Of a DNA stretch of 53,645 bases, positions 30,346 through 46,746 are shown one piece after another. Under the pieces are notes generated by a model. That model was not told where the DNA came from, made no database searches, and saw only the letters and a program-made list of their open reading frames with translations. Position 1 is the stretch's first letter. Each line of letters starts with the position of its first letter. Position numbers and translations under genes: made by a program. The stretch lies in IMG/VR virus record IMGVR_UViG_3300027769_000039, positions 1-53,645 of that record, one strand, 5' to 3'. Origin of the DNA: a virus. Its lineage: Duplodnaviria > Caudoviricetes.

Positions 30346-30364
30346 TTAATTTACCTTTTTCCTA

Positions 30365-31003
30365 TTATACTTGTTCTTCTGTTGAAATTGCAGTTCCAGC
30401 TGATTCAGCAGCTAATCTTTTGGCTTCATCTTCAAACTTTTTAGCAACAGCTTCCAAATCTACCGTATCTGGCTCAACAGTACCAGCTTTTGCTTTTTCA
30501 AATTCAGCTTGCACTCTAGCGTCTTCCTCGTCAGCAATTTGTTGCGCTTTTACTAATATAGACTCTGAAATTGTATGCAAAGAAATCAAATCTTTCGTGT
30601 GAATATTTTTATCGTAAGCTGGTAATCCAAGTTTATTTAGATATTCTGGATCTTCCTTGTATTTATTTGCAATAGTTCCATTATACAATAATACTGTATT
30701 TGTAAAGTTTCCATCTAATTCAGTTTCGATAACAAAATCATTGTCATCGGTTGGTTCTAACATTTCTTCTGTCATGTCTTCATGCACAGAGTCATATCTT
30801 TTCTTATCAATATTAATTAAATGAATATTTTCTTTATCAAATTCTGTTGGATATCTATCATCTAAACTACCTTTAGGTTGTACTACTCCATTTATTTCTT
30901 CGTCTTCTTCCAAAAATTTTTGTAAAGGAAAATTTAAAGAAGGAAAAAATGTAGTAGCGTCATTAGTTTGAGATACGATTTTTCTAGTTTTAGTGATTGC
31001 CAT
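30365..31003 (-). CDS. Acidic hypothetical protein (212 aa)
   Basis: ORF between RCC1-repeat genes; no recognised motif. Confidence 0.75.
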   Translation of the reverse strand: MAITKTRKIVSQTNDATTFFPSLNFPLQKFLEEDEEINGVVQPKGSLDDRYPTEFDKENIHLINIDKKRYDSVHEDMTEEMLEPTDDNDFVIETELDGNFTNTVLLYNGTIANKYKEDPEYLNKLGLPAYDKNIHTKDLISLHTISESILVKAQQIADEEDARVQAEFEKAKAGTVEPDTVDLEAVAKKFEDEAKRLAAESAGTAISTEEQV

Positions 31004-31011
31004 AGTAGCCT

Positions 31012-33669: not shown

Positions 33670-33685
33670 TTATTTTTCCTTAACC

Positions 33686-35845
33686 TTATTGGTTCTTTAA
33701 TTTAGTCATGACATTCCAATAAGAACCTCTATAGTTAGCTCCGCTAATGTTATAGTCATTTGAATAACCAGTATTATATACTCTACCTGTAGATAAGTCT
33801 ACATAGAGACCAAATTTGTTACTTGAGTAACCAGTTGGGTAATATTTCCAATAGGAACGATATGCACTTTCCTGAATATGTGGAAATAACAAATTATTTT
33901 TCAATCGATAGTTTTCAGAAATATTATCTGGATCTCTCTTTTGTCTTTGGTTATAGGAATCGTTATGTCCCGAACCCCATGCGCCACCATTATTCGCATA
34001 TCCACAGAAATACCACTCACCATCACTTCTCTTGACTGCTGCATTAGTATAAGAAGAGGATCCAGTATTTGAAGCAAAATCTACCACATTGGTTAGAGCT
34101 GCTCCTGCTCTAAATTGAGTCTGCTGTAAAGTATTATACTGAGTGCTGTTTGCTTGACCAACCGACAGCTGATAGTAACCATTATATCCGCAAGAGTAGC
34201 AAGTATTGCTGCTATCGGAAGAACCTCTAGTTACATACATTGAACTGTATTGACCACCGAACATCCAAGCATTGTGGCAGTCTGTTATTAAATCTCCACT
34301 TGGACTTCCCATTTGTGGAGATGAGGTATCAACTGTTGTTGAAACACCAGAATATCCTCCAGTGTACACTTTTAGTGGGAAAGTTACATTATATGTATGA
34401 TTATGACCCAATGCTCCGTAACCATTATAACCCCAAGTGTACAGTGTACCATCTCGTCTAATCATTAGCATAGATACTACACTACCACCATTCGCTGCGC
34501 CACCAGTATTAAACTTTTTAATACCAGTTGTTGAGGTAGTTCCCCAAATATTGTTGCCATTGTCAATTTTAATTCCTGTTAAGGATGTTCGCTGCGATGT
34601 ATCACCAACACCAAGTTGACCATATCCATTATATCCGCAGGCATACATTTTTCCTTGGTCAGTTAATAACCAGAAGCAACCATAACCACCACCAGTTGCC
34701 CAAATTTCAATAATCTTACCATTCGTTGCTTGATCGAAAGAAACTAGAGTTGGCGCATAGTAGTCACTTGTGTTACCATGACCGAGTTGTCCGTATCCGT
34801 TATAACCCCAAGAATATAATTCACGAGTGTCATCGTTATTACGAACTAATGCGTAGTTAGATTTTGTGCTGTTTGTACCACTGGCCGATGATGCAATTCG
34901 AATAACTTTTTTAGTGCGTAGAATTGTAGTGGTATTTGATCTATTTACATTCGCATAACCGCATTGTGTAAAATTAGTATAGCCATTAGTATTTCCATGA
35001 CCACTTCCACCTTGGGCTTGATATCCACCAGCGTGAACTTCTCCATTGTCAAATAGAACTAACATTCCAGCATCTAAACCACCATCACTTTCAACCTGAA
35101 TTACTTTTGGTACTGGTTGCGTACCATTAATAGCAGTAGTAGGTAAAGAACCATCAAACCAACTTAAATGTGCAAATTGACATTCAGTAGGAGTTTGATG
35201 AGTACTTCCAGTTCCACCATTACTTAAATTTGAACTTGTATTTCTTCCATAAGTCATTATTGTATGTCTTCTGGTAATATACTGAATAGCACCATTACCA
35301 GCTAAGTCAATTCCAGGAGTTTTAAACTCACCAAAACTGTCGCCCATACCAACATAACTAACACCAGGAACAGCCAACGCATATGCATCCCAGACACTCT
35401 TATGAGTTGGGGCATAACCTTCGTTCGGTCCAAAAAGATAAGCAAACTTATCTCTCATTGTTCCTTCAGAAATCATTCTCCATCTAGTTGTTTGTACTTC
35501 AGGATATTCAGTTGTAGCACCAGCAGTATGTGCTAAAATACAAACATATGTGTTTTGTTCTAAGTAGTTGTGATGATCATTATATGGTCGAACAATTTTT
35601 CTAGTTACGATATCGCCAACTTTATATGCAGTAGTCCAAACCCACTCGCCTGCAAAATAAGTTCCTCTACCATAGTGGTACCAGTTAGTAAGATCTTCTT
35701 GCGGATTTGTTGCAGAAGTATGACTTGTAGTACAAAAATAAAAAGTATTTTTATATGTTACAACATCATCTTTTAAATATGCGGTTGAAACAACCCATTC
35801 ACCTCTTGGATTGAATCTTAACTTACCTAGAGTTACTTGTGCCAT
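33686..35845 (-). CDS. RCC1/BLIP-II-like repeat protein, 719 aa
   Basis: LYSWGYNGYGQLGHG, MYACGYNGYGQLGVG, LYTWGYNGYGALG; N-terminal LGKLRFNPRGEWVVSTAYLKDDVV. Confidence 0.85.
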   Translation of the reverse strand: MAQVTLGKLRFNPRGEWVVSTAYLKDDVVTYKNTFYFCTTSHTSATNPQEDLTNWYHYGRGTYFAGEWVWTTAYKVGDIVTRKIVRPYNDHHNYLEQNTYVCILAHTAGATTEYPEVQTTRWRMISEGTMRDKFAYLFGPNEGYAPTHKSVWDAYALAVPGVSYVGMGDSFGEFKTPGIDLAGNGAIQYITRRHTIMTYGRNTSSNLSNGGTGSTHQTPTECQFAHLSWFDGSLPTTAINGTQPVPKVIQVESDGGLDAGMLVLFDNGEVHAGGYQAQGGSGHGNTNGYTNFTQCGYANVNRSNTTTILRTKKVIRIASSASGTNSTKSNYALVRNNDDTRELYSWGYNGYGQLGHGNTSDYYAPTLVSFDQATNGKIIEIWATGGGYGCFWLLTDQGKMYACGYNGYGQLGVGDTSQRTSLTGIKIDNGNNIWGTTSTTGIKKFNTGGAANGGSVVSMLMIRRDGTLYTWGYNGYGALGHNHTYNVTFPLKVYTGGYSGVSTTVDTSSPQMGSPSGDLITDCHNAWMFGGQYSSMYVTRGSSDSSNTCYSCGYNGYYQLSVGQANSTQYNTLQQTQFRAGAALTNVVDFASNTGSSSYTNAAVKRSDGEWYFCGYANNGGAWGSGHNDSYNQRQKRDPDNISENYRLKNNLLFPHIQESAYRSYWKYYPTGYSSNKFGLYVDLSTGRVYNTGYSNDYNISGANYRGSYWNVMTKLKNQ

Positions 35846-35855
35846 TTATTATACC

Positions 35856-36188
35856 TTAGTATGTTGCAGTTAATTTGCCTGTTGTTTGATCGATGGCAAG
35901 TATTAATTTATTAGAGAAAAACGCAGAAAGAGCATTTTCAATATTAGTAGTCGAAGTGCTTGCTTCGCTACCAAGAATTTGGTTATGGATTAAATTACCA
36001 TTTGCGTCAACAGATAAAATGTTATATGCTGATACTGAGATTGGAGACCAAAGAGTACCATCATAAATTTCAGTAATAGATAAAGTAGTATTATAGCGAA
36101 CCATTCCCTGTACAGGAACATTCGGACGCTCTGCGGTAGTACCAACACCTATGGTAACATATTGATCGCCTAGGACTGTAGCTGGCAT
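35856..36188 (-). CDS. Small fibre-module protein (110 aa)
   Basis: GTTAERP...GMVRYNTT...EIYDGTLW module typical of aquatic T4-like fibre proteins. Confidence 0.7.
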   Translation of the reverse strand: MPATVLGDQYVTIGVGTTAERPNVPVQGMVRYNTTLSITEIYDGTLWSPISVSAYNILSVDANGNLIHNQILGSEASTSTTNIENALSAFFSNKLILAIDQTTGKLTATY

Positions 36189-37243
36189 TATTTAACTCCT
36201 TTTAAGTCTTCTATTTCTCTATTTAGGTCTTTTATTGCTTCTATTAACAGGGGAATTAACTTGTCATATTGCACTGTTAGATAGTTTTCTCCAGAACGAG
36301 AAATTTCTGTATTTTCAAACATAACAAGATCAAATGGAGCTGGCTTAACTGCTTCTGGCAAAACCCTCTTTACATCTTGGGCTATGACGCCAACTTCATT
36401 TTGTTTTTTGTAACCTAATTCTTCTGCGATAGTATTTGGTTGATACGTAACACCACGAAGCGACATTACTTTTTCTAGAGCATTTGTAATTACTTGAATA
36501 TTTTCTTTTAATCTCTCATCCGAATAGTATGATGTAATTTGGTTGGTTGCTCTAATTTCTCCAGTAGTTCCAGACGCAGCAGTTCCAACACCTAATGATC
36601 CAAACTGCACATTAGACGAAGAAGATGTATCTTGTGGAGTTGATAAAGTAATACTACCAGAAGCATTGGTAACTGTTATTCTGTTTGGTGTTCCTGTTAG
36701 TGTGGTACAAGCATATAGTCCAGCAGAAGTTCCAATTAAAATTGATCCATTAACAGGGACAGTATTTGTTCCCGAACCACCTTGCGCTGGATGCAATGGT
36801 GTAGTTAAAGTAAGAAGTTGAGCCTGTATTGAACCAGCAGAAAACCCACCATCTAAATCGCGACGAACTACTTTGTTTGCAGTATTTGTGCTAGTAGCAT
36901 CTGCCAACTCTAATTTATAGTCGTTTAATCTAATAAAATTGGTGTCAATTTCAACGCTAGATAACGGAGAACCTTTTACAGTAATTCCATTACTATTAAT
37001 AGTATAAGTGGATGATGTTACTGTAACAGCTGCATTGCTGACTAAAGTAATTGTGGTATTACTATTGACGCTGTTAACAGTACCAATGGTAACACCAGCT
37101 CCAGTCTTTAATACCTGTCCAGGAACAACTTCAGTTAAGAATTGTGATCCAGAACCTGTGATAGTTAGACTGGAAGTATTGGAAGATATCGTTCCAGTTC
37201 CGTTGGTGATACCTGTGGTTAATCTAGTTACGATTGTAGTCAT
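36188..37243 (-). CDS. Short fibre protein with C-terminal intramolecular chaperone (peptidase S74-like), 351 aa
   Basis: KGSPLSSVEIDTNF; YYSDERLKENI...GVIAQDVKRVLPEAV...YDKLIPLLIEAIKDL. Confidence 0.85.
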   Translation of the reverse strand: MTTIVTRLTTGITNGTGTISSNTSSLTITGSGSQFLTEVVPGQVLKTGAGVTIGTVNSVNSNTTITLVSNAAVTVTSSTYTINSNGITVKGSPLSSVEIDTNFIRLNDYKLELADATSTNTANKVVRRDLDGGFSAGSIQAQLLTLTTPLHPAQGGSGTNTVPVNGSILIGTSAGLYACTTLTGTPNRITVTNASGSITLSTPQDTSSSSNVQFGSLGVGTAASGTTGEIRATNQITSYYSDERLKENIQVITNALEKVMSLRGVTYQPNTIAEELGYKKQNEVGVIAQDVKRVLPEAVKPAPFDLVMFENTEISRSGENYLTVQYDKLIPLLIEAIKDLNREIEDLKGVK

Positions 37244-37280: not shown

Positions 37281-37295
37281 TATTTATTATTTATA
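37281..37295 (-). promoter_or_regulatory. Late promoter(s): TATAAATA plus AATAAATA
   Basis: tatttattatttata upstream of the 351-aa gene. Confidence 0.7.
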
Positions 37296-37310: not shown

Positions 37311-38057
37311 TTATATCAACAAACTTTCTATTTTGTTAAACAACTGTATTCTGGCTTGGATTGCTTCTATTGCAGCCTGCTCAGCTTCATGTATAAGAAT
37401 TGGGTCGTTTTTGCAGAAGTAATTCACCAAATTTTCTGACATTGACCCATGTTCTTCTCCATCTACCTGTATATGTCTTTCCAAATAATAATGGAACTTT
37501 GGTGCTTCGGTCTCTGATATATTTATTTGGTTCAGTATACGCTTAAACATGGATGGAATTACCGTCTCTCGACCATAAGAAAACGATGCTGCAGCACAAT
37601 GTGGTCCACCACGAATTGCCTTAAATGTAGTTTCTATAAAGTCGGCAACTATTTCTGGTGCACCAAAATGAACACCCTGTTTTTCGACTTTAGACAAGTA
37701 TTCTTGGATAGGAATAGTGTCAGCGTTTACTTCCAACATTGCTTGTAAATACAAGTCGAAGTGGCTTATTGAACTGTTTCCATCAGGACTTGTATCAGTT
37801 TCCTCACAAAGAACAATCTCATTAATAGTTCTGGCTATATCGGAGCGAGTTCCTCTAGTCGGTAACCATAGCTGGCTCGAGGGAACTGTAGCATGTTGCA
37901 GTGTCTTCAATAAACTCATAAAGTCCCAGACTGCGAATACATGATACTTCATAAAGATTCTCAGATCTTCAACGGACTGTATTGTATTTGTTACCAATAA
38001 CGAATGATTCTCAAGTAGAGATTTGTGCTGTTGGATTTTGGTTAAATCTATTCTCAT
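37311..38057 (-). CDS. DUF3050-like protein (heme-oxygenase-like fold, putative iron enzyme)
   Basis: FMKYHVFAVWDFMSLLKTLQ, INEIVLCEETD, SHFDLYLQAM, FSYGRETVIPSMF, YYLERHIQVDGEEHG. Confidence 0.85.
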   Translation of the reverse strand: MRIDLTKIQQHKSLLENHSLLVTNTIQSVEDLRIFMKYHVFAVWDFMSLLKTLQHATVPSSQLWLPTRGTRSDIARTINEIVLCEETDTSPDGNSSISHFDLYLQAMLEVNADTIPIQEYLSKVEKQGVHFGAPEIVADFIETTFKAIRGGPHCAAASFSYGRETVIPSMFKRILNQINISETEAPKFHYYLERHIQVDGEEHGSMSENLVNYFCKNDPILIHEAEQAAIEAIQARIQLFNKIESLLI

Positions 38058-38070
38058 TATGTATAAAACC

Positions 38071-38126
38071 CTAAATAAGTCTATTGTAGAGCTACCTAAA
38101 TATGTATAATATAAGGACTATTTATG
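38071..38126. promoter_or_regulatory. Divergent control region: two plus-strand CTAAATA (38071-38077, 38096-38102), TATAAT (38105-38110), AAGGA Shine-Dalgarno, and minus-strand CATAAATA (38119-38126)
   Basis: Motifs read directly from the sequence; they match the late-promoter-like motifs upstream of structural genes in this window. Confidence 0.5.
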
Positions 38127-38510
38127 CCAACAATAACAAGGGTTACCAGTGGGATGATCGCCCCAGCGCAAGATGTAATACAGACTAGAGTAGACGCTTT
38201 GCGTTCTAGATTTACAGCTGGTAATATAATTCTAGCGTCGGATGTAAATGAACTAAACAGCATTTTTACCCTGTTTGATGACCACTATCACCAGACAGTA
38301 GACTATGCTTTTGAGGCATATGGAAACCTTGGATACACAACATATTATAACACAAATCCAGAAAATACTGGAAGTTTAGTTGCGTCAGAAGTTCAAATTG
38401 TTGCAGGTGAGGTTGCCGTTGGAGATGTAATTACTGCAGAATATCATGACAAACTTAGAATAATGTATGAGGGAGCAGATGCTCATACTCATGCTATCAC
38501 TGATAATTAA
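38124..38510 (+). CDS. Small protein (128 aa) with two G-x-x-I-x-A...HxH modules
   Basis: AGNIILASDVNELNSIFTLFDDHYH and VGDVITAEYHDKLRIMYEGADAHTH; AAGGA Shine-Dalgarno. Confidence 0.8.
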   Translation: MPTITRVTSGMIAPAQDVIQTRVDALRSRFTAGNIILASDVNELNSIFTLFDDHYHQTVDYAFEAYGNLGYTTYYNTNPENTGSLVASEVQIVAGEVAVGDVITAEYHDKLRIMYEGADAHTHAITDN

Positions 38511-38527
38511 GATAAGGTAAACAACTA

Positions 38528-38725
38528 ATGTCTGTTGAACAAAGCATTAATACAAATATCACAGTAACTACTAAAGAAGTTGGTGATGATATTACTCCTG
38601 ACACTTTTTTACAAATGTTAAATATTTTAGAAAATTTAACAGACCATACTCATATCTTTTATGACGATTATGGAACAGCTTGTAACTGTAATTGTGCTTG
38701 CGCATGCGGAAGAGGAATCATATGA
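38528..38725 (+). CDS. Cys-rich peptide (65 aa), candidate radical SAM substrate/precursor
   Basis: VGDDITPDTFLQMLNILENLTDHTH followed by IFYDDYGTACNCNCACACGRGII; AAGG Shine-Dalgarno; ATGA overlap with the next gene. Confidence 0.8.
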   Translation: MSVEQSINTNITVTTKEVGDDITPDTFLQMLNILENLTDHTHIFYDDYGTACNCNCACACGRGII

Positions 38726-39675
38726 AAAACTATTTTTTTATTAAAACAGAACCAACAGTAAATAAAACATGGGCAGATGTATGCGAGGGGTTAAACTCTT
38801 ATTACGCTGGACCAAATCCTGGATTACAAAATACAGATTTGGGTGGATATACTGATCAAGAACAACAAATTTACAGTTATGTTAAGATTGACAGAAAGTT
38901 GGGATTATATAAAACTGAAACTAACACACTGGCAATTGCTGTAACTTCTCCAGTTGTTGGACAAACACTTGGCGTTAGCGAATTAGATCTAGAACTAATT
39001 AAAGAAAAATTAGACTCTGGTGTTAAGACTGTTTATTTCGGTTACCTATTTACTACAGAGTCAGTTACTCAACTGCAAGTTGTAGATAACTCTGTGTACT
39101 TCGGAAGAAATCCAATCGACAATGTTCTTACCAATTTTAATGACAACACTCCGATAGAAGGTAATGTATCTTCTGCTGTCTGGATGGCATTTTACAAAAT
39201 TAAAGATAGCAATGTATATTTTGTTGTATTAAATGATACTTTAGTAGACTCTACTGTAGTTCGCGACTCAGTTTCTGAAGCTGATTTAAAAACTGAAGAT
39301 AATATTATTGAGTTTGTAAATAGTCATGATGGTGGATTTAAAGATTCAGTATTTAAACCAACTATTACTGGCGGAACTTTTATTGGTAAAAATATTATAG
39401 TTACCAGCGAAAACGAATTAACACTAGATGTTTTTGGTCGTTCTGCATTTCATATGATTAATGCTGGTGTAACTGTTAAAGATGCCGATCTTCCTGAGAT
39501 AGATCTTTTGGTAGAATCGTCTGCAGAAATTGAAGTAAACAAAAATAAAATTTCTATAACAATCTCTGATCCAATATCTACTTTGCAATATAAGTGGAAT
39601 ACTGGTTCTGAACTTGACTTTATTTTGTCTGAAGAAAATAAATTACAATACGATTTTGTTATACTTAAAGTATAA
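38722..39675 (+). CDS. Hypothetical protein (317 aa; start reassigned to MKNYFF at 38722)
   Basis: GAGGA Shine-Dalgarno and ATGA coupling to the peptide's stop codon; beta-rich, no recognised motif. Confidence 0.75.
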   Translation: MKNYFFIKTEPTVNKTWADVCEGLNSYYAGPNPGLQNTDLGGYTDQEQQIYSYVKIDRKLGLYKTETNTLAIAVTSPVVGQTLGVSELDLELIKEKLDSGVKTVYFGYLFTTESVTQLQVVDNSVYFGRNPIDNVLTNFNDNTPIEGNVSSAVWMAFYKIKDSNVYFVVLNDTLVDSTVVRDSVSEADLKTEDNIIEFVNSHDGGFKDSVFKPTITGGTFIGKNIIVTSENELTLDVFGRSAFHMINAGVTVKDADLPEIDLLVESSAEIEVNKNKISITISDPISTLQYKWNTGSELDFILSEENKLQYDFVILKV

Positions 39676-39698
39676 TCTTTTCTCATCATTATTATGGA

Positions 39699-41423
39699 AT
39701 GAATATGTTAGAACAACCAATCGTATTTCATCGTAAGTTAAGTGTATCTCAAGCCAAAAGAATCAATGAAGACCACAAAGCATCAGTTATAGTTGATGAT
39801 ACTGGAAAATTTGATTATCTTACAGAAAACATAGTTACCCCAAAGGGTTTAACTAAACAAAATAAAAAAATATCAATACTGCCTTCTCCAGAGGAGAGGG
39901 TAGTTTCATTTAAAGATGCTGATTATTTGTTTAGCGAACTTGGTCAAATGAATGTTATCTTAACAAATGCCTGCAATCTTTCTTGCACATATTGTTATGA
40001 ACAACACAACAAAGACTTTGGTAGATTTACCGAAGAATCCCTACTACAAGCATACAACTTTTTACTAAACAATTCTTTAGTAGAACGCAAACGCATGCAG
40101 TTTTTCGGTGGAGAACCACTAATCCACAAAGATTTAATCTTATCATTCTTAAAAAATAACAAAGATTATTTACAATCAAATGCTGACTGTGGTTGTCAAG
40201 TTATAAACATGATAACAAATGGAATACTCCTTACTCCAGAATTTATGGATGAGTATTTTAATTATACCTTCACATATATGATGATAAGTTTAGACACATT
40301 AAGAGTTGACTTAGACCATCGAGAAATCACTCAAAAACAATTAGATGATATTCTAGGTAAAGTAGAATCGTTACCAGACCATGCGAAAGAAAGAATTCAT
40401 TTTAGATGCACTTTGTCTAGAGAAACTGCACCACATTTTTTAGAATATTGTAAGAAACTAAACGAAATAGGTGTTCGTGCTTTAATTATACATCCACTGA
40501 TTCTAGATTCTCAGCGTGGTTTTATAAAATGGCCAGATGTAGAATGGAACAAATTACATAAAGATATTCTTACTGCATTGGATGTATATCCAAATATGTC
40601 TATATCATTCTCAGAAGGTGTTGGTAGAAAATACGAAAATAATTGCATGATTGGTTCAGACATGATTGCCATAGATGCATCAGGCGATTATTCTGGATGC
40701 TATTTCTTTACAAACCAAAAAGCCAATGGTGCTGATATTGCCATTCTTGGGAATATATTCCAAGATAAACTCTATATTGATCGGTACAAAACTTTCCAAA
40801 ATTTATTTAATGAGATGTTGGAAACCCAAGAACAATGTAGAACATGTAATTACAAAAACGCTTGCTATCAATGCCCAGCTGGAAATCTAGATACTGGTTC
40901 AGCTATGTTTAGACCAGATGACATGTGTCAAAGTATTGTTAAATTGTATCTAGATTTACAAAATGATATTACTAAAAAGAATTATAAAAATAAATTTGGT
41001 CTTCTGTTAAAATCTTGCAAAGAAGAATCAGAAGAACTTGTGTTTACACGAGCATTGATTCATTTAATGTATCGCATGAGCACTAATATCTTTACTACTA
41101 CTGAAGAGATTAACGAACACTTGCATAAATGCAAGCCAGAAAATTTGGCGTATTCGTGGAAACGCATGGTCGAAACTAAACAAAGACCAAAGGCAAAAAC
41201 TGTTGCAGAATTCCTAGAAGAAATTGATCTGTCTGGAGAATTAGATCTTCAATCGTTATACCACTTCTTGACTGTTTCAATTGGTATACCAAAAACTGCA
41301 GATATGGATATGAGCAACTTAGTAGTTCGTGTTGGTTATTTGACTTTACTCCACATGTTAGTATTGAATAAAGAGAGTAAACTTTTTGAAGATTCACCTA
41401 TTGAAAAACTATTTTCTAAATGA
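39699..41423 (+). CDS. Radical SAM/SPASM-domain protein 1 (574 aa)
   Basis: CNLSCTYC, FFGGEPL, ITNGILL; auxiliary cysteines NCMIG...GCYFF...CRTCNYKNACYQCP...MC; N- and C-terminal extensions. Confidence 0.93.
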   Translation: MNMLEQPIVFHRKLSVSQAKRINEDHKASVIVDDTGKFDYLTENIVTPKGLTKQNKKISILPSPEERVVSFKDADYLFSELGQMNVILTNACNLSCTYCYEQHNKDFGRFTEESLLQAYNFLLNNSLVERKRMQFFGGEPLIHKDLILSFLKNNKDYLQSNADCGCQVINMITNGILLTPEFMDEYFNYTFTYMMISLDTLRVDLDHREITQKQLDDILGKVESLPDHAKERIHFRCTLSRETAPHFLEYCKKLNEIGVRALIIHPLILDSQRGFIKWPDVEWNKLHKDILTALDVYPNMSISFSEGVGRKYENNCMIGSDMIAIDASGDYSGCYFFTNQKANGADIAILGNIFQDKLYIDRYKTFQNLFNEMLETQEQCRTCNYKNACYQCPAGNLDTGSAMFRPDDMCQSIVKLYLDLQNDITKKNYKNKFGLLLKSCKEESEELVFTRALIHLMYRMSTNIFTTTEEINEHLHKCKPENLAYSWKRMVETKQRPKAKTVAEFLEEIDLSGELDLQSLYHFLTVSIGIPKTADMDMSNLVVRVGYLTLLHMLVLNKESKLFEDSPIEKLFSK

Positions 41424-42517
41424 ATTATAGTCAAGATCTAAACAATGTAAACACAATCGCAATATACTTAGGAAATACTTGCAATTTTAATTGCACATAT
41501 TGTGATCGGGAGTATATCTCTGAATCTATTGGTGGCCAGAATTTCACAAACCACCATCTAAATCTCCTTACAAACTTTTTTGAACAAATCTATAAAGAGT
41601 CAACTCTCACAATAGATAGAGTCGCATTGCATGGTGGCGAACCATTTTTGTATGTGAAAAGAATGGATCAGATTTTAGAAAGAATTAAACCATATCTCGA
41701 CAAATATAATCTTTATGTTTCTATCACTACAAACGCTTCTCTGGTTTTAAAAGAAAAAGAGTTTGTTAACAAGTGGAGTAAATATATTCGGTTTACATTT
41801 AGTTACGATTTTATCTTCCAGGAAACGAATCGCGAATCTGTTGAAATCCATAAGGTTATTGATTTCTGCAATTCATTGGATATTCCAATTCACTGGCAAT
41901 TTGTAATCCCAGTTACCAATAAAAAAGCATTTAGTTTAGAATTAATTAAAGATATTATAGACAAGGTTCATCGTTGCAAAATTATCAAATCTTTGAATCT
42001 TATTCCACTTCGTCATACCAGAGGTAAAGATAAATTTGAAGTTTATGTTGATGAGTTAGATCTTAAACAATTTTATGATGCATTCATTCGATTCGTTAAT
42101 ACATTATACAATTATAATATTATGGTGTTTATTGATGGCAATTATGGCAAGATAGATAAAAATTATCTTGACCAACACTATAAGATTATACTATCACCTG
42201 ATGGTTTCATTTATCCAGAATATGATTTTTGCGAATACAAAACAACAGAGTTTCAAATTGGTAGATGGACGGATGGATTATCGCCAAATTTTATTCCTAC
42301 CATAAACAAAAAAGAATACACAAACTATAAAGAAAAGTGCAACACTTGTTCTTCCAAAGAAACTTGTGGTTTAAAATATTTGTATTCTATGTTTGACAGA
42401 GAGCCAGCAGTTAAGTGCGAAATGTTCTATAAGATTATAGATACCATGGTCAATTATGTGGCTAAATTGAATAGTAAACCAAACTTCTTAACATGGATTA
42501 ACGATGGCCACAGATAA
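41420..42517 (+). CDS. Radical SAM protein 2 (365 aa) with a degenerate SPASM-like tail
   Basis: CNFNCTYC, LHGGEPFL, ITTNASL; ILSPDGFIYPEYDFC...CNTCSSKETC...KC. Confidence 0.9.
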   Translation: MNYSQDLNNVNTIAIYLGNTCNFNCTYCDREYISESIGGQNFTNHHLNLLTNFFEQIYKESTLTIDRVALHGGEPFLYVKRMDQILERIKPYLDKYNLYVSITTNASLVLKEKEFVNKWSKYIRFTFSYDFIFQETNRESVEIHKVIDFCNSLDIPIHWQFVIPVTNKKAFSLELIKDIIDKVHRCKIIKSLNLIPLRHTRGKDKFEVYVDELDLKQFYDAFIRFVNTLYNYNIMVFIDGNYGKIDKNYLDQHYKIILSPDGFIYPEYDFCEYKTTEFQIGRWTDGLSPNFIPTINKKEYTNYKEKCNTCSSKETCGLKYLYSMFDREPAVKCEMFYKIIDTMVNYVAKLNSKPNFLTWINDGHR

Positions 42518-43616
42518 GCGTCAAATTATTGATGACGAACAAATGAGTTCTCGTGAGTATTTTATACGAAACGACAATTTAAACAGCGTTCACACTGAGT
42601 TATCTTTTTCTATACTAAGAAGATATAACTGTTTTGCTGGCTGTAAAATATGTTACATTGATAAAAATTTTGAAAAAGATAAAGAGAAATTTAGTAGGTT
42701 TATTCCAACTGAAATCCCAAAAGAAATAGAAGATTCTTGGGATACCATATTTAAACATTACAGAATAGTATCAACTATTGATGATCTATATTGGATAAAA
42801 CACAAACAACCAGAGTTATATACTTGGTATAAAAACAATGCATACAGGTTTCACTTTGGAACTCTAACTGACAATTCATTTGTAAGAAATTATGATATTT
42901 TTATGAATGAGTTAATTAGTTACAAAACTTTTCCAGAAGTAACTTTTTCTGATGCATTTTTAGTTAAAGTTAATATTGAGGAAATACTGAATAAACTGAA
43001 TGTTATTCAGAAACGATTTGGAATTAAATTGATGAAATTGGTTCAAACTAATTTAAACTCTCATGAGTGGGAACCTGTAAAGAAGTTTATTGATTGGTCA
43101 AAAACTAATGCAGAAGAGTTTAGCATTCATTACGATTTTACTAAATTTGATACTTTAGACACTGGTCAAAAAGATCAAGAAACTGTATTCGCTACATTTA
43201 ATTCAGAGTTATACAACTTATGTGGCGAAATAGATTATTTGCAATATGACTCTTTCTTTTTAACATTGCCAGAATCAACAGATATTACATCAACTCCTTA
43301 CCATACTATTGAAGACGGATTTAATCCAAAAAAACATCTGTCTGATCATCTAAAAGGAAAGATAACTTTATATGCTAAGTATGCTGAGAAACTAAAATAT
43401 TCAATCAATAAAAATAAACAATTTTATGGATATTTTAAATGGGTTTCAGAAAATTTAATAGTTAATGATGATTATACATATATCCCAATATTATCATTAA
43501 AAAACTTTCATCCTTATTATGAACAACTGCAACAAAATGGATGGACCTCTACCAATGCTGGATTATTACTGACAGGTGCCAAATATGTTAAACCAATTTT
43601 TAATTTTAAATCATGA
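42504..43616 (+). CDS. Divergent radical SAM-like protein 3 (370 aa)
   Basis: N-terminal CFAGCKIC (CxxxCxxC) in the usual position, but no GGE motif and only one further cysteine. Confidence 0.6.
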   Translation: MATDKRQIIDDEQMSSREYFIRNDNLNSVHTELSFSILRRYNCFAGCKICYIDKNFEKDKEKFSRFIPTEIPKEIEDSWDTIFKHYRIVSTIDDLYWIKHKQPELYTWYKNNAYRFHFGTLTDNSFVRNYDIFMNELISYKTFPEVTFSDAFLVKVNIEEILNKLNVIQKRFGIKLMKLVQTNLNSHEWEPVKKFIDWSKTNAEEFSIHYDFTKFDTLDTGQKDQETVFATFNSELYNLCGEIDYLQYDSFFLTLPESTDITSTPYHTIEDGFNPKKHLSDHLKGKITLYAKYAEKLKYSINKNKQFYGYFKWVSENLIVNDDYTYIPILSLKNFHPYYEQLQQNGWTSTNAGLLLTGAKYVKPIFNFKS

Positions 43617-44968
43617 GTGAATATACAATTAGTCTGGCAAGTTTAAAGCGTAAACTAAAACCAGAGCCAGACAAGATACCAATGTTCGATAGAACTCCAG
43701 AGAGTTGGAGTAAGTTCAAAGTTAAAAATACTGGTAGAGTGTTTTATTATTCAAACTACGACAATGGTTTATATGATGCGAATAAAAATGCACTATCAGT
43801 TATTGCTGAGCCAGATGCCGAATATTACGCAACGATTTCTGAAACTAGATCCAGAGTAAAATCAAATAAACCATTTTGGATTAGAATTCTTCTTGGTCAT
43901 GCATGCAATTATTCTTGCTCTTACTGCATGCAAAAAGATATTGGTAATCCCGACGAACGAGAAAAAATTACTACTACTGATTATTTTATTGAACAGTTGG
44001 GTAAACTTGATATGAGTCGTTTGCAAAAAATTGATTTGTGGGGTGGCGAAACATTATTGTACTGGAAAACTATCCAAGAAATTATGAGAAAGTTTGACCG
44101 AGAAGGTCTTGAGTGGTATATTCCAACAAATGGAACTCCGCTTCAAATGAAACATATTGAATTTTTTAAAACATTAAAAAGTAAAGTTGGAATTAGTATT
44201 TCGCATGATGGTCCAGGACACGAAAGACTTCGTGGCGAAGAGTTCTTACATAAGAAGGTTGATGTTTTAAGAGCCATGATTGACAATGATATTCAATTTA
44301 GTTTCAATCCAGTAATCAGTAAAACGAATTATAATTTGTTTGATATTAATAAGTTTTTCTATGACTATTGTGAACAGAATGGTATTGATTACAGTAAAAT
44401 TGGAATTAATTGGATAGTTGGACACAACCATGATTATGAAAATATACACAACTCTGCAGACCATGTAATTGGTGGAGAGTCTTTAGAGAAGTTTGGTGAA
44501 GTTATTCTTGAATATATGGATAAATGTATTGAACAATTTATTCAAGGAAAAGATAATAAGTTATTTAAAAACTCACTATTCACTGGCAGTATGGGAGTTA
44601 TTCCATACACAAAAACATTAAAGCAACAAATACTTCCAACATCTTCCACATCTTGCGGAGTAGATGATGAGGGTGTTTTATCTGTAGATATTAAAGGTAA
44701 TGTCCGCACTTGTCCTCATACTGATGAGTCGTTTATTGGGGGACATTTGGAAGATCTTGAGAATGTTAAACTCAAGAATATTGATTTAGATAGATACGAA
44801 AAACATTGCAAATCTTGCTCAGTCTTTCGTTTGTGTAAATCTAATTGTCCTATTGAAGTTCCTGATGAAGTTTTCTTTAGTAACTGTGCTATTGAAAAAA
44901 CATACCACAGAGCAGTTCAAGAAACTGCATTTAAAATTTTGTTTGGTGGTGAAGTAGAACTAATTTAA
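43613..44968 (+). CDS. Radical SAM/SPASM-domain protein 4 (451 aa)
   Basis: CNYSCSYC, LWGGETLL, PTNGTPL, ISHDGP; SCG...VDIKGNVRTCPH...CKSCSVFRLCKSNCP...NC. Confidence 0.93.
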   Translation: MSEYTISLASLKRKLKPEPDKIPMFDRTPESWSKFKVKNTGRVFYYSNYDNGLYDANKNALSVIAEPDAEYYATISETRSRVKSNKPFWIRILLGHACNYSCSYCMQKDIGNPDEREKITTTDYFIEQLGKLDMSRLQKIDLWGGETLLYWKTIQEIMRKFDREGLEWYIPTNGTPLQMKHIEFFKTLKSKVGISISHDGPGHERLRGEEFLHKKVDVLRAMIDNDIQFSFNPVISKTNYNLFDINKFFYDYCEQNGIDYSKIGINWIVGHNHDYENIHNSADHVIGGESLEKFGEVILEYMDKCIEQFIQGKDNKLFKNSLFTGSMGVIPYTKTLKQQILPTSSTSCGVDDEGVLSVDIKGNVRTCPHTDESFIGGHLEDLENVKLKNIDLDRYEKHCKSCSVFRLCKSNCPIEVPDEVFFSNCAIEKTYHRAVQETAFKILFGGEVELI

Positions 44969-45484
44969 TACTAAATCAAAAGCAATACATTTTCTTGTAA
45001 TGTTGCTAGTATTAGTATCAACCCAGTGATTAATCCAACCTGGAAATATGATAAGATCATTTGTGGATGGCGTAATCATATATCTAGTATCTCCCAACAA
45101 TTTTCCAAATTGATCAGGATTTTCCAAATACAAATTGCCAGAATTTTCTGCTTGTAAATAATATACAGCAGAATATACAACTATCTGTTGGTTGGGATTT
45201 ATATGATTGTGTGAAATAACAGAAGTATTGGGTTTGCTTTCAGAAATCCAATAATTTTGAATTTTAACATTTGAATTAATTGATTTAAATAAAGTATGCA
45301 ATTTGGAAGTTATCTGCATATCTTTATTTGACAAGTCGGTTTCAATTCCACCTATTGTCTCATCAACACCTAAATGTTTTGTTATAGATGATATAGAATT
45401 AAGTTCATCATAACAATTTTTTAATTCTTCATCAGTTAAAAAATTACGAAAGTGCCACAGAGGCACTCCAAACAGTTTATTCAT
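44960..45484 (-). CDS. Putative 2OG-Fe(II) oxygenase (start probably MNKLFGVP at 45484)
   Basis: LFGVPLW, YWI, SHNH, YSAVYYL, LIIFPGWINHWV, RKCIAFD; TAATG coupling to the upstream gene. Confidence 0.85.
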   Translation of the reverse strand: MNKLFGVPLWHFRNFLTDEELKNCYDELNSISSITKHLGVDETIGGIETDLSNKDMQITSKLHTLFKSINSNVKIQNYWISESKPNTSVISHNHINPNQQIVVYSAVYYLQAENSGNLYLENPDQFGKLLGDTRYMITPSTNDLIIFPGWINHWVDTNTSNITRKCIAFDLVLN

Positions 45485-46746
45485 TACAGAATAACACACT
45501 CCACAACTTTAACACCAGCGTCATCGTTAGATTCTAAAGCAATCGCAAACGAATTGCTAGTATCTCCATGGATACCCTTACCATCTTGATTGCAAATTAA
45601 TGGTTGTCCTTTACGAATCGGACCAACAACTTTCACTGGCACACGACCACGAAGAGCAATTGCTTGACCAGGTGCTTCATCATTCATTAAGAATGCTGGA
45701 TTTGTGGAAACTACACCAAGAACTCTTTGACCAGTTTGGAAAGATGCAGTTGCTTCAGCATCGCCAGATAAAGCAACTGTTAGAACAGTCCCAGGTTCAT
45801 ATTCTACATCAGTTGTATATTTTTCTGCCAAGTCAGCATACTTAGCTGAGGTTGCAGTACCATAGATTGTTCCGAACCGATTTGCTGTTTGTCCAATATC
45901 ACCTGTACCATTTGTTCCAGTTTTAAAAATTGAAGCGACTGACACAAATGTTGCTGCAGTAACAGAATTTACAGAAAGTGTAGCAGAAGTTGAAATATCA
46001 ATAACAGGGTTTCCTGAAACGCCATCACCATTAACAATAGTAATTCCATTTGTACCAGCAGTAAATGTTCTTTCAGTAACTGATCCAGTGCCAAGACGAG
46101 TATAAAATCCTATAGAAGTGGAAGCACCAGCAATAGCAGTTAATTCGTTAGAGAATGGTTGAACATCAGAACCGATAGATAATCCTAAATTGGCTCTTGC
46201 TGATGTAGCATTTGATGCGCCAGTTCCGCCATCGGCAATCGCCAAGTCAGTAATACCAGTAATAGTTCCACCAGTAATTGCAATAGCGTCAACATTTTGA
46301 GTAGCAGCAGTTCCCAATCCAAGACCAGCTCTTGCTGTGGCTTCTGTCGTACCACCTGTTCCACCATTATTGATAGCAACAGTTCCATTAACATTGCTCG
46401 CATTACCAAAAACTGTGCCAGTTAAATTTCCTGTAATGTTACCAGTAACATTACCAATTAAAGTTGTAGCAGTAATTGTTCCTGCAGAGAAGTCGCCATT
46501 TGAATCGCGAACAACTACAGTACTAACAGTATTTCCTGTGGCTGACTGAAATCCATCAATAGTATCAGCATCTAATCCAGAACCAGAACCATCAACTGTT
46601 TTGATTTTGGTCAAAACATCCAAAGCAGTGTAGTTTGATGCAGTTAATTTTGTTCCGACTTCCACATTAATATTGTTGAAGTTGTCGTCGACCTCTTGAT
46701 TTGTAAGAGGACTACCTTTAACATTTCGAAGAACGATTGTTGCCAT
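45484..46746 (-). CDS. Fibre/baseplate-associated protein (420 aa)
   Basis: LRNVKGSPLTNQEVDDNF, DGSGSGLDADTIDG, two GGTG..ARAxLGL repeats, C-terminal AKYADLAEKY...GVVSTNPAFLMN...IALRGRVPVKV domain. Confidence 0.75.
   Translation of the reverse strand: MATIVLRNVKGSPLTNQEVDDNFNNINVEVGTKLTASNYTALDVLTKIKTVDGSGSGLDADTIDGFQSATGNTVSTVVVRDSNGDFSAGTITATTLIGNVTGNITGNLTGTVFGNASNVNGTVAINNGGTGGTTEATARAGLGLGTAATQNVDAIAITGGTITGITDLAIADGGTGASNATSARANLGLSIGSDVQPFSNELTAIAGASTSIGFYTRLGTGSVTERTFTAGTNGITIVNGDGVSGNPVIDISTSATLSVNSVTAATFVSVASIFKTGTNGTGDIGQTANRFGTIYGTATSAKYADLAEKYTTDVEYEPGTVLTVALSGDAEATASFQTGQRVLGVVSTNPAFLMNDEAPGQAIALRGRVPVKVVGPIRKGQPLICNQDGKGIHGDTSNSFAIALESNDDAGVKVVECVIL

Follow-up and report, generated by a model that had tools for sequence, protein, structure and literature searches.

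Genomic context and organization of the cassette

The DNA analyzed here is the 53.6-kb IMG/VR virus record IMGVR_UViG_3300027769_000039 (53,645 nucleotides, hereafter the window), which is estimated to be 34% complete. It encoded a major head protein (phrog_138) together with large virion proteins and a number of tail-fiber proteins, all on the minus strand, and judging from these genes its layout is that of a T4-like marine myovirus. Between two of the tail-fiber genes, at 36188–37243 (351 amino acids, aa) and 45484–46746 (420 aa), this structural region was interrupted by a cassette of seven plus-strand genes at positions 38124–44968. The cassette encoded a 65-aa protein ending in a ladder of alternating cysteines (pep65), a 128-aa protein with two HxH motifs (HxH128), a 317-aa protein and four proteins of radical S-adenosylmethionine (SAM) type, and was flanked by two putative oxidase genes. 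The open reading frames (ORFs) of the region were as follows.

36188–37243, minus strand: 351-aa tail-fiber protein, with 33 PHROG tail-fiber-type matches (best 5.4e-31)
37311–38057, minus strand: DUF3050 protein (PF11251), divergent from the cassette
38124–38510, plus strand: HxH128 (128 aa), with HYH at 54–56, HTH at 121–123 and no Cys
38528–38725, plus strand: pep65 (65 aa), with the C-terminus CNCNCACACGRGII
38722–39675, plus strand: 317-aa protein, with an ATGA overlap with the pep65 stop
39699–41423, plus strand: 574-aa enzyme, with CxxxCxxC, radical SAM and full SPASM domains
41420–42517, plus strand: 365-aa enzyme, with CxxxCxxC and four C-terminal Cys
42504–43616, plus strand: 370-aa protein, with CxxxCxxC only; divergent, radical-SAM-like
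43613–44968, plus strand: 451-aa enzyme, with CxxxCxxC, radical SAM and full SPASM domains
44960–45484 from ATG (ORF 44960–45499), minus strand: 2-oxoglutarate (2OG)-Fe(II) oxygenase (PF13759/phrog_81), converging on the cassette
45484–46746, minus strand: 420-aa tail-fiber protein (phrog_19602 tail fiber, 2.8e-19)

Successive plus-strand genes overlapped or almost abutted, with spacings, in order, of 17, −4, 23, −4, −14 and −4 bases (overlaps at four of the six junctions). Outside the cassette, all ORFs of at least 120 aa lay on the minus strand, except for three that were nested within larger minus-strand ORFs, and the G+C content of the cassette was 31.6% vs 37.5% for the rest of the window. 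The initial annotation, made without database searches, had described nine genes here, including a tight plus-strand operon interrupting a minus-strand structural region. All nine ORFs were present as described there, and the neighbors of the cassette were indeed tail-fiber and virion proteins.

The cysteine-ladder peptide and its paralog

The layout of pep65 comprised a variable N-terminus, an amphipathic helix, the segment HTH-IFYDDY and the terminal ladder C-N-C-N-C-A-C-A-C-GRGII. A profile search at E ≤ 1e-3 placed the protein in a family of 417 clusters, each of them either without a name or called "hypothetical", on contigs reaching 222 kb in length. Ladder composition was counted in the best 120 of the 417 clusters, and exactly five strictly alternating cysteines were found in 120/120. 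The residues at the five X positions, each out of 120, were distributed as follows.

X1: E 94, N 21, D 3, Q 2
X2: Q 98, N 21, A 1
X3: Q 84, A 21, N 15
X4: A 96, D 16, Q 6, E 2
X5: S 68, G 44, N 6, T 2

An acid or amide residue occupied X1 in all 120 clusters and X2 in 119, and the core of the family in these best clusters was C-[END(Q)]-C-[QN(A)]-C-[QAN]-C-[ADQE]-C-[SGNT]-R-G-x-hydrophobic, the R-G-x after the ladder leading to an end that was either hydrophobic or Cys. The segment preceding the ladder, …I-x-A-D-T-F-x-Q-M-L-x-x-L-x-x-L-x-x-H-x-H-I-F-Y-D-D-Y…, was conserved equally to the ladder itself, and variation within the family was limited to the first ~25 residues. Distant relatives carried three to six cysteines. 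We presume that pep65 is the substrate of the cassette enzymes.

HxH128 consisted of two "helix, HxH, x3, D" units, with H54, H56, H121, H123 and D127 invariant in the alignment of its family (139 clusters). Like pep65, it had no curated Pfam or NCBIfam match, and it had only a weak match to one PHROG, of unknown function; when profiles of pep65, HxH128 and the 317- and 370-aa proteins were searched against PDB sequences, only chance-level matches were returned. An hhalign comparison aligned the front half of pep65 with the second HxH128 unit (probability 96.3%, E = 1.8e-9), indicating that HxH128 is a two-module paralog of the pep65 front half. An enzymatic role for HxH128 was ruled out, as it matched no catalytic family and repeats the module of the peptide itself; it is presumably a partner, a scaffold or a second substrate. 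It was found in every locus with a one-module pep65.

In an exhaustive profile search of 1.84 billion representatives, 82 proteins were returned at E ≤ 1e-3, 24 of them read individually. P0265 (230 aa) carried three modules and one ladder, equivalent to HxH128 fused to pep65, and two modules plus a ladder were present in P0248, P0266, P0277, P0286, P0305, P0311 and P0310. In P0318 and P0319 the modules were present and the ladder was replaced by another domain. The existence of these natural fusions suggests that HxH128 and pep65 work together. Judged from their sequences, the fusions are compatible either with three modules side by side (HxH128 plus pep65) or with stacking along a homotrimer, and they do not favor one over the other. 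By analogy with other phage proteins discussed below, the HxH motifs of both proteins probably bind a metal ion.

Radical SAM enzymes

The 574-, 365- and 451-aa enzymes scored above the Pfam cut-off for Radical_SAM (PF04055), with 55.2, 37.8 and 43.9 bits vs 29.5, and the 574- and 365-aa enzymes additionally matched Fer4_12. SPASM domains have seven C-terminal cysteines for two auxiliary 4Fe-4S clusters. Such a domain was recognized in the 574-aa enzyme by Pfam (PF13186, 24.8 bits vs a cut-off of 21.5) and in the 451-aa enzyme by NCBIfam (TIGR04085, 28.9 bits vs 27). Residues C316, C334, C380, C383, C389, C392 and C410 were conserved in 9/9 homologs of the former, and C348, C367, C399, C402, C408 and C412 in 13/13 homologs of the latter (C425 in 12/13). 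With the three radical SAM cysteines and seven further conserved ones, both enzymes display the full two-cluster SPASM pattern. In the 365-aa enzyme, C21/25/28 and C307/310/316/333 were conserved in 9/9 homologs, and its four C-terminal cysteines appear to form a partial SPASM or twitch-like domain. The 574-aa enzyme had extensions of ~80 aa at the N-terminus and ~150 aa at the C-terminus outside any matched domain.

The 370-aa protein had no Pfam or NCBIfam match, and no auxiliary-cluster cysteines were conserved in it; it matched phrog_36229 at 2.2e-44. Its C43, C47 and C50 were invariant in the family alignment, and CxxxCxxC was found in 8/10 homologs, the other two being cut or split ORFs. 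In the ESM Atlas it reached a feature score of 0.93 to Fer4_12/Radical_SAM clusters and TM values of 0.44–0.50 to radical SAM models. The motif and the Atlas matches together offer a lead toward radical SAM membership. Where the initial annotation had counted four radical SAM enzymes, three were therefore recovered above the Pfam cut-off, and the fourth kept a conserved motif with no Pfam match.

All three recognized enzymes (574, 365 and 451 aa) belonged to phrog_1802, the 365-aa enzyme at 5.2e-26 and the 451-aa enzyme at 6.5e-49. Their best named NCBIfam matches were PapB, nif11-type, QhpD, CefB and CXXX-repeat maturases, all far under the respective cut-offs (340–650 bits). For the PapB-type maturase model NF047865, which was the best NCBIfam match of the 574-aa enzyme (the QhpD model being its third-best), the scores of the 574-, 365- and 451-aa enzymes were 99.2, 38.5 and 51.3 bits vs an equivalog cut-off of 340; for the anaerobic sulfatase-maturating enzyme (TIGR03942) they were 45.9, 22.9 and 40.1 bits vs 349. 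The mycofactocin maturase model gave 26.5 bits vs 265 with the 451-aa enzyme. The closest solved structures for the 451-aa enzyme were 8vpo_A (4.6e-16) and then an anaerobic sulfatase-maturating enzyme (1.7e-10). By these matches, the cassette enzymes are SPASM maturase-like and members of no curated equivalog tried. The best scores, though far below equivalog cut-offs, were to models of peptide-maturing radical SAM/SPASM enzymes and not to the cofactor or nucleotide-modification families that, according to the initial annotation, would have refuted its proposal.

Conservation of the cassette in other genomes

No match to the region was returned by megablast from 50,697 phage records. In protein searches, a homolog of the 451-aa enzyme with 43% identity was found in the Ralstonia jumbo phages RP12 and RP31. 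In RP12, counterparts of HxH128, of the 317-aa protein, of all four radical-SAM-type proteins and of the DUF3050 protein were encoded by ORF074–ORF080. The 280-base gap between ORF074 and ORF075 contained an unannotated 65-aa pep65 homolog ending HTHVFYDNYGSNCNCNCACTRGSL (L001:7011–7208, plus strand, equal to NC_041911 about 82888–83085), which occupied the same place in RP31.

The synteny survey of viral metagenomes suggested with the initial annotation yielded 15 IMG/VR loci, 11 of which contained a pep65 homolog and HxH128 together with the enzymes. pep65 was present in 11/11 viral loci that covered the stretch upstream of a full cassette. In L005 and L008 the contig started inside the cassette, and L015/L016 contained an enzyme relative (37% identity) in a different context with no peptide. 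In L015/L016 (L015:2481–6006), on a viral contig, this relative adjoined a 699-aa ORF whose C-terminus resembled, by eye, an outer-membrane receptor.

Three contigs from bacterial genomes (L018, L019 and L034) also carried pep65 and the cassette; they were recovered by an enzyme-based scan, a pattern scan of bacterial genome contigs having missed the pep65 relatives. In Ewingella americana, the genes for all four enzyme types were preceded by that of a two-module pep65-type protein with six cysteines. Gene order varied among loci: in L010, HxH128 was flanked by the 370- and 451-aa genes, and in L012 the peptide was encoded on the opposite strand. This shuffling suggests that selection has acted on the set, as opposed to common inheritance of a single block. 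The ladder of L010 had three cysteines alongside a full enzyme set. Cassette-bearing phages ranged from 30% to high G+C. L014 had been considered as a minimal cassette with one enzyme; this was ruled out, because it additionally carries a 695-aa B12-binding radical SAM gene.

Association of the enzyme clade with ladder-ended tail fibers

When prokaryotic genomes, one for each species, were scanned with a profile, 80 loci were obtained, 36 of them with near-full-length relatives of the enzyme (L018–L053). The remaining 44, which matched the radical SAM core only, served as controls. A ladder ORF was defined as one on the same strand as the enzyme gene, with three or more Cys-X repeats at its end, lying no more than 7 kb upstream or 2.5 kb downstream of that gene. 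Its frequency in the three sets of loci was as follows.

Full-length bacterial relatives: 24/36 loci; 23/28 with at least 3 kb of upstream sequence
Control loci: 1/44, a spurious-looking frame; 1/33 with at least 3 kb of upstream sequence
Viral loci: 9/15; 9/12 with at least 3 kb of upstream sequence

Two further viral loci had a ladder ORF on the opposite strand. Among the 50,697 cultured-phage records, the enzyme clade was found only in RP12/RP31, JWF/2-1 and RSP15, and in all three lineages a ladder protein stood beside the enzyme.

Some of the ladder-ended proteins themselves matched tail-fiber families. In a Magnetospirillum prophage (L040/L045), a 347-aa protein ending CSYCSYCTCACSDCSC matched 12 PHROG tail or tail-fiber families, and its gene lay between tape-measure (phrog_3336, 1.6e-139) and central-tail-fiber genes, followed by two phrog_1802 enzymes. 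A 375-aa protein of the Bacillota prophage L051 (P0241, L051:6098–7225), with five tail-fiber PHROG matches and internal HTH repeats, ended SHYHKLERCDYNCDCCNDCCGDSE; its gene followed that of a central tail fiber J protein, with a radical SAM gene two genes downstream. This locus fails the strict ladder rule and was counted as a miss. Hint domains cleave at their first Cys. In gp028 of Achromobacter phage JWF (L098:4802–6253), which had two tail-fiber PHROG matches and the ladder NCNCDCNCNCSC, the last Cys of a six-Cys ladder (residue 308; …RQNCNCDCNCNCSC) coincided with residue 1 of a Pfam Hint domain. The sequence suggests that self-cleavage would expose the ladder as the mature C-terminus; here, too, a radical SAM gene was found two genes downstream. 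The "side tail fiber" ORF048 of Ralstonia phage RSP15 ended NCQCGN, three genes before the enzyme gene.

In about 17 Rhodobacteraceae loci, a ~92-aa protein ending FNCNCNCRC was encoded after Peptidase_S74-ended fiber genes and directly before the enzyme gene. This module (L020–L046, e.g., L022:355–9128) started with two Peptidase_S74-ended fiber genes, a peptidoglycan (PG)-binding protein and a 300-aa protein, and continued with a PF13759-like gene, the ~92-aa ladder protein, a phrog_81-like gene and the phrog_1802 radical SAM gene. The PF13759 match was below threshold (25.8 vs 27 bits) and the phrog_81 match was at 1.8e-6. The module may reside in a prophage, gene transfer agent or tailocin. 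Bradyrhizobium had tandem ~75-aa proteins ending WNCACDCNCACGK. Overall, the phrog_1802 clade adjoins ladder-ended proteins across several phyla, and three of these proteins match tail-fiber families. Of the cassette enzymes, it is the 451-aa one whose clade was also met singly next to ladder-ended tail fibers of other phages.

Some additional features were seen around the ladder genes. A family of 270–300-aa proteins with a conserved C-terminal stretch of ~60 residues (L022:5213–6115, L040:5755–6579 and L099:5305–6120) accompanied them in Rhodobacteraceae, Magnetospirillum and Ralstonia phage RSP15. A contig of Thalassobius vesicularis (L031, L043) had two radical SAM copies ~10.5 kb apart, one with a ladder gene and fiber module and the other with neither. 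Fiber proteins near ladder genes (L022:3310–4554, P0241) contained repeated H-x-H-x-[IV]-x-D, e.g., SHAHAISD, PHAHVTAD and PHTHTAAD, which by eye resembled the HxH-x3-D unit of HxH128 and pep65.

Other cassette and flanking genes

The ORF of the 317-aa protein begins at a TTG at 38692 (327 aa) and contains an ATG at 38722 (317 aa), through which it is translationally coupled to pep65 by the ATGA overlap. The protein had no match in Pfam, NCBIfam, PHROG or PDB, and nothing at or above 0.9 in the ESM Atlas. Homologs were found at eight loci by BLAST, and RP12 ORF075 and the L019 protein were linked to it by hhalign (96.8%, E = 2.8e-10). The possibility that it is the counterpart of the 270–300-aa ladder-associated protein was ruled out (hhalign probability 0.1%).

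Both flanking genes had been named correctly in the initial annotation. DUF3050 is a family with a heme-oxygenase-like iron redox fold. The DUF3050 protein matched PF11251 at 247.3 bits vs a cut-off of 22.2 (E = 2e-73), over profile positions 2–233 of 233. In L001 (RP12), L008, L009, L010, L011, L017 and L018, the gene immediately following the last of the radical SAM genes encoded a homolog, and in L019 a homolog stood on the opposite strand. This co-location in eight other loci suggests that the DUF3050 gene is part of the cassette, although it was absent from the cassettes of L004–L007 and L012–L014 and from every fiber-fused version.

The 2OG oxygenase matched 2OG-FeII_Oxy_5 (PF13759) at 40.1 bits vs a cut-off of 27, and phrog_81 at 3.5e-26. 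Its ATG (45484) overlaps the stop of the 420-aa fiber gene as TAATG, indicating translational coupling. In the nearest viral relatives, a 619-aa B12-binding radical SAM gene held its place beside the 420-aa-type fiber gene; such genes (619–695 aa) beside this fiber type were found at L004:11309–13168 (minus strand) and L014:6217–8304 (plus strand). In Burkholderia jumbo phage S13, the radical SAM genes gp71, gp76 and gp79 are reported beside the 2OG oxygenases gp80 and gp82 (PMC11898562). An iron oxidase often accompanies the system, and by analogy it is plausible that the 2OG gene of the window belongs to it; the tie consists of this analogy and the coupling to the fiber gene. As for the initial suggestion that both flanking oxidases are tailoring enzymes, it is consequently backed by co-location for the DUF3050 protein and only indirectly for the 2OG oxygenase.

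The C-terminal ~130 residues of the 420-aa fiber recurred beside the cassette in L003–L006, L008, L010, L011, L014, L017 and L018, in fibers that differed in their N-terminal parts. This domain could be a docking partner of the cassette product or another target of the enzymes.

Elsewhere in the window, three large fiber-like proteins (707, 885 and 719 aa; 28222–35845, minus strand) matched RCC1-type repeats (phrog_4219, phrog_7220), and the 707- and 719-aa proteins additionally had tail-fiber N-termini. A sigma-70 scan gave 56 sites vs 45.5 ± 7.1 in shuffled sequence. The word TATAAATA, which we take to be of T4 late-promoter type, was not enriched in the window (4 seen vs 6.6 expected); one copy was located at 37288–37295 (minus strand), 45 bases upstream of the 351-aa fiber gene.

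Proposed function and alternative explanations

The initial annotation had proposed a dedicated phage modification system acting on a Cys-rich peptide. The retention of the peptide at homologous loci (11 viral loci, RP12 and three bacterial contigs) supports this proposal, and the wider comparison, in which the ladder is tied to tail fibers, favors a modified virion component, one of the options then put forward. We propose, at a rough probability of 55%, that this phage-borne cassette serves to mature a fiber-associated cysteine-ladder protein, probably via thioether cross-links. The enzymes would thus probably modify a component of the apparatus by which the phage attaches to its host; the chemistry and the location in the virion are inferred.

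The residues Asn, Asp, Gln and Glu are acceptors of the PapB, QhpD and NxxC SPASM thioether enzymes. In the proposed mechanism, the helix–HxH part of pep65 would serve as a recognition or assembly module, and the SPASM enzymes would act on the ladder by abstracting H from the residues (Asn/Asp/Gln/Glu or others) between the alternating cysteines. Joining of these residues to Cys sulfur would give ranthionine- or sactionine-type thioethers, and the cross-links would make the C-terminus a rigid knot, proof against proteases and redox change. Further modifications may be added by the remaining radical SAM proteins, by DUF3050 and perhaps by the 2OG oxygenase; additional cross-linking within FYDDY, or oxidation, is conjecture. 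The product would be neither cut out nor exported. It would stay whole, join HxH128 and work at or on the tail fibers as a tip, cap or adaptor, a role suggested by the fact that in other phages the ladder is the C-terminus of the fiber itself. Its HxH motifs would hold a metal ion, as in other phage fibers. There are precedents for two of these steps: a SPASM enzyme is reported to put thioethers into a whole protein (CrpC/CrpA, PMC13692751), and the HxH motifs of T4 gp37 and of marine phage fibers are reported to coordinate iron (PMC11705849).

A number of observations weigh against this proposal. Neither pep65 nor HxH128 matched a tail-fiber PHROG or Pfam family, nor did the Rhodobacteraceae 92-aa ladder protein match a tail-fiber family. 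In P0281 the ladder is internal, with a Pro-rich linker and one more domain after it. The strict ladder was absent in 5/28 full-context bacterial loci, and near-duplicate loci (L004/5, L006/7, L010/17, L012/13, L015/16 and L020/38) mean that there are fewer independent lineages than the counts suggest. Every radical SAM match to a named maturase family was far below cut-off, and none of the nine proteins had a match to a RiPP (ribosomally made, post-translationally modified peptide) recognition element (RRE) or PqqD in Pfam or NCBIfam at E ≤ 0.1; the N-terminal 80–90 residues of the 574- and 451-aa enzymes could conceal a divergent RRE. In RefSeq, the RP12 homologs of HxH128 and the 317-aa protein are labeled "hypothetical protein" and two of their neighbors "virion structural protein", which hints that the homologs escaped detection in virions. 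Finally, tail-fiber regions are accessory-gene hot spots, with radical SAM cassettes added to the host recognition cluster (PMC7029224), and location alone is weak evidence because such regions collect inserted genes.

The strongest of the rival explanations, and in our judgment an unlikely one, is a classical free RiPP, in which a leader precedes a ladder core that is released by a host protease or an unrecognized one and acts as a toxin, a signal or an intracellular (anti-defense or host-takeover) effector. The small size and leader-then-core layout of pep65 would suit it, as would the three to four radical SAM enzymes beside a Cys-rich peptide, which recall ranthipeptide and sactipeptide clusters, and the best NCBIfam matches being RiPP maturases (PapB, nif11-type, CefB, CXXX-repeat). 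The RP12 homologs are not annotated as virion proteins, and the 317-aa protein, having no known fold, could be the protease. However, as the initial annotation had noted, no leader protease, exporter or other transporter was found among the cassette proteins (Pfam, NCBIfam, PHROG). The pep65 "leader" is conserved like the core across 417 clusters, with only the first ~25 residues varying, and a Cys-less paralog of it is always alongside and sometimes fused. Moreover, ladders end tail-fiber-family proteins beside the same enzyme clade, and the cassette occurs in the fiber modules of unrelated phage types. The notion of unrelated accessory genes that landed together in a permissive spot and form no system, to which the low G+C of the cassette (31.6% vs 37.5%) and its strand opposite to its neighbors might point, is hardly credible: it is contradicted by the synteny, the same seven genes recurring together in shuffled order in phages of 30% to high G+C, and 4/6 plus-strand junctions overlap.

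Two other explanations keep the system and change its chemistry. The ladder and HxH motifs might form a metal or iron-sulfur site without cross-links, while the enzymes act on the 420-aa fiber, HxH128 or FYDDY by methylation, epimerization, C-C cross-links or Cys-to-formylglycine oxidation. We consider this quite improbable, since the ladder is the sole feature that tracks the phrog_1802 enzyme across phyla and its X positions are strongly biased to Asn/Asp/Gln/Glu, the acceptors of SPASM thioether enzymes. The substrate motif of the anaerobic sulfatase-maturating enzyme is C/S-x-P/A-x-R, and C-x-[PA]-x-R was absent from the JWF, Rhodobacteraceae and Magnetospirillum ladders, even though this enzyme is the second-best solved structure for the 451-aa enzyme (1.7e-10). 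On the side of a metal site, enzyme number does not follow Cys number (L010 has three Cys and a full enzyme set), HxH128 is always present though Cys-less, related cassettes add a B12-binding radical SAM gene beside the fiber gene, and Cys-X-Cys runs and HxH are typical metal ligands, HxH binding iron in phage fibers (PMC11705849). Only a slim chance is given to a peptide-derived redox cofactor or chelator, like pyrroloquinoline quinone (PQQ) or mycofactocin, with DUF3050 as a PqqC-like final oxidase and an auxiliary metabolic function for the infected cell. In its favor, metabolic genes are common in marine phages, and SPASM enzymes are found here together with an oxidase of heme-oxygenase fold, kept in eight other loci, and with a small peptide whose FYDDY stretch has invariant Tyr and Asp. 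Against it, the mycofactocin maturase model scored 26.5 vs 265 bits (451-aa enzyme), no PqqE or PqqD was among the matches listed, no peptidase was present, and DUF3050 was missing from L004–L007, L012–L014 and all fiber-fused versions; what the peptide has in common with the fiber-borne versions is the ladder and not the Tyr/Asp stretch.

Beyond the maturation of a fiber-associated ladder protein in the window, a wider and more tentative proposal is that PHROG 1802 SPASM enzymes are tail-fiber tip maturases, which would turn a terminal Cys run into a covalently stapled, perhaps metal-loaded needle required for adsorption. The Cys run would sit on the fiber or, in marine myoviruses and RP12-like jumbo phages, on a 65-aa protein docking with its HxH paralog.

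Comparison with known systems and significance

Phage radical SAM genes have appeared in genome papers on pelagimyophages, RP12/RP31, Burkholderia S13 and Campylobacter CP220/CPt10. Together with MgoB (DUF3050) or 2OG oxygenases, they are listed as accessory genes (PMC7029224, PMC5468394, PMC11898562, PMC2853527), and in pelagimyophages the radical SAM accessory genes lie in the host recognition cluster (PMC7029224). The roles offered in the available parts of these papers are metabolic or unknown, and no substrate peptide, Cys ladder or fiber maturation is mentioned there. A literature search, which left most subscription journals outside its scope, found no published account of the peptide or of the ladder, none connecting radical SAM enzymes with fiber maturation, and no report of a virion protein modified by such an enzyme.

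If the cassette does mature a fiber-associated protein, some phages finish their host-attachment organelles with oxygen-sensitive radical chemistry. Under the wider proposal on PHROG 1802 enzymes, an unrecognized, widespread class of virion post-translational modification would exist, and HxH beside a ladder might make a built-in iron-bearing tip, as the "Ferrojan horse" idea calls for, which bears on whether marine phage fibers carry metals. A function would also be at hand for the unexplained radical SAM, DUF3050 and 2OG-oxygenase genes of marine myoviruses and jumbo phages. Cultured phages with the system are Achromobacter JWF (one enzyme beside one fiber), RP12/RP31 and RSP15. Should the product be a free peptide instead, it would be, within the scope of the literature search, the first characterized multi-radical-SAM RiPP family found to be confined largely to viruses.

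Among known systems, the cassette resembles ranthipeptide and sactipeptide loci (PapB/PapA, CteB, SkfB) in having a 7-Cys SPASM radical SAM gene beside a short Cys-rich substrate, and the acid and amide residues by its cysteines fit the acceptor preference of PapB-type enzymes. It differs from them in score (99 vs 340 bits), in its four radical-SAM-type genes with no RRE, protease or exporter detected, and in an alternating C-X-C-X-C substrate rather than C-X3-D. Its "leader" shows high conservation, with a paralog that lacks Cys encoded separately, and its setting is the phage tail-fiber region, where the ladder is sometimes fused to the fiber. QhpD is a SPASM enzyme that installs several Cys cross-links. 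CrpC is reported to do likewise (PMC13692751). QhpD/QhpC of quinohemoprotein amine dehydrogenase and CrpC/CrpA of Methanococcus are similar to the cassette in that the substrate remains a protein subunit; the 574-aa enzyme, however, scored 69 bits vs 453 with QhpD, a phage fiber module replaces the dehydrogenase context, and the ladder motif and HxH modules are absent from those systems.

The invariant HxH of pep65 and HxH128 is shared with HxH fiber sites (the T4 gp37 needle and the "Ferrojan horse" marine fibers), as are the HxH repeats of ladder-ended proteins matching tail-fiber families. HxH motifs of trimeric fibers are reported to hold iron on the fiber axis (PMC11705849). The T4 and marine fibers need no radical SAM enzymes and have no Cys ladder, and for pep65 and HxH128 trimer formation and metal binding are putative. 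A further parallel is the C-terminal processing of fibers by the Peptidase_S74 chaperone or Hint domains, as the JWF ladder directly precedes a Hint domain and S74-ended fibers stand beside the Rhodobacteraceae ladder genes, whereas the ladder of the window is on a free-standing 65-aa protein with neither domain. Set against these systems, the pep65-type substrate family is new and well defined, being large (417 clusters) and having the sharp motif C-[END]-C-[QN]-C-x-C-x-C-x-RG, and its link to tail fibers is unexpected.

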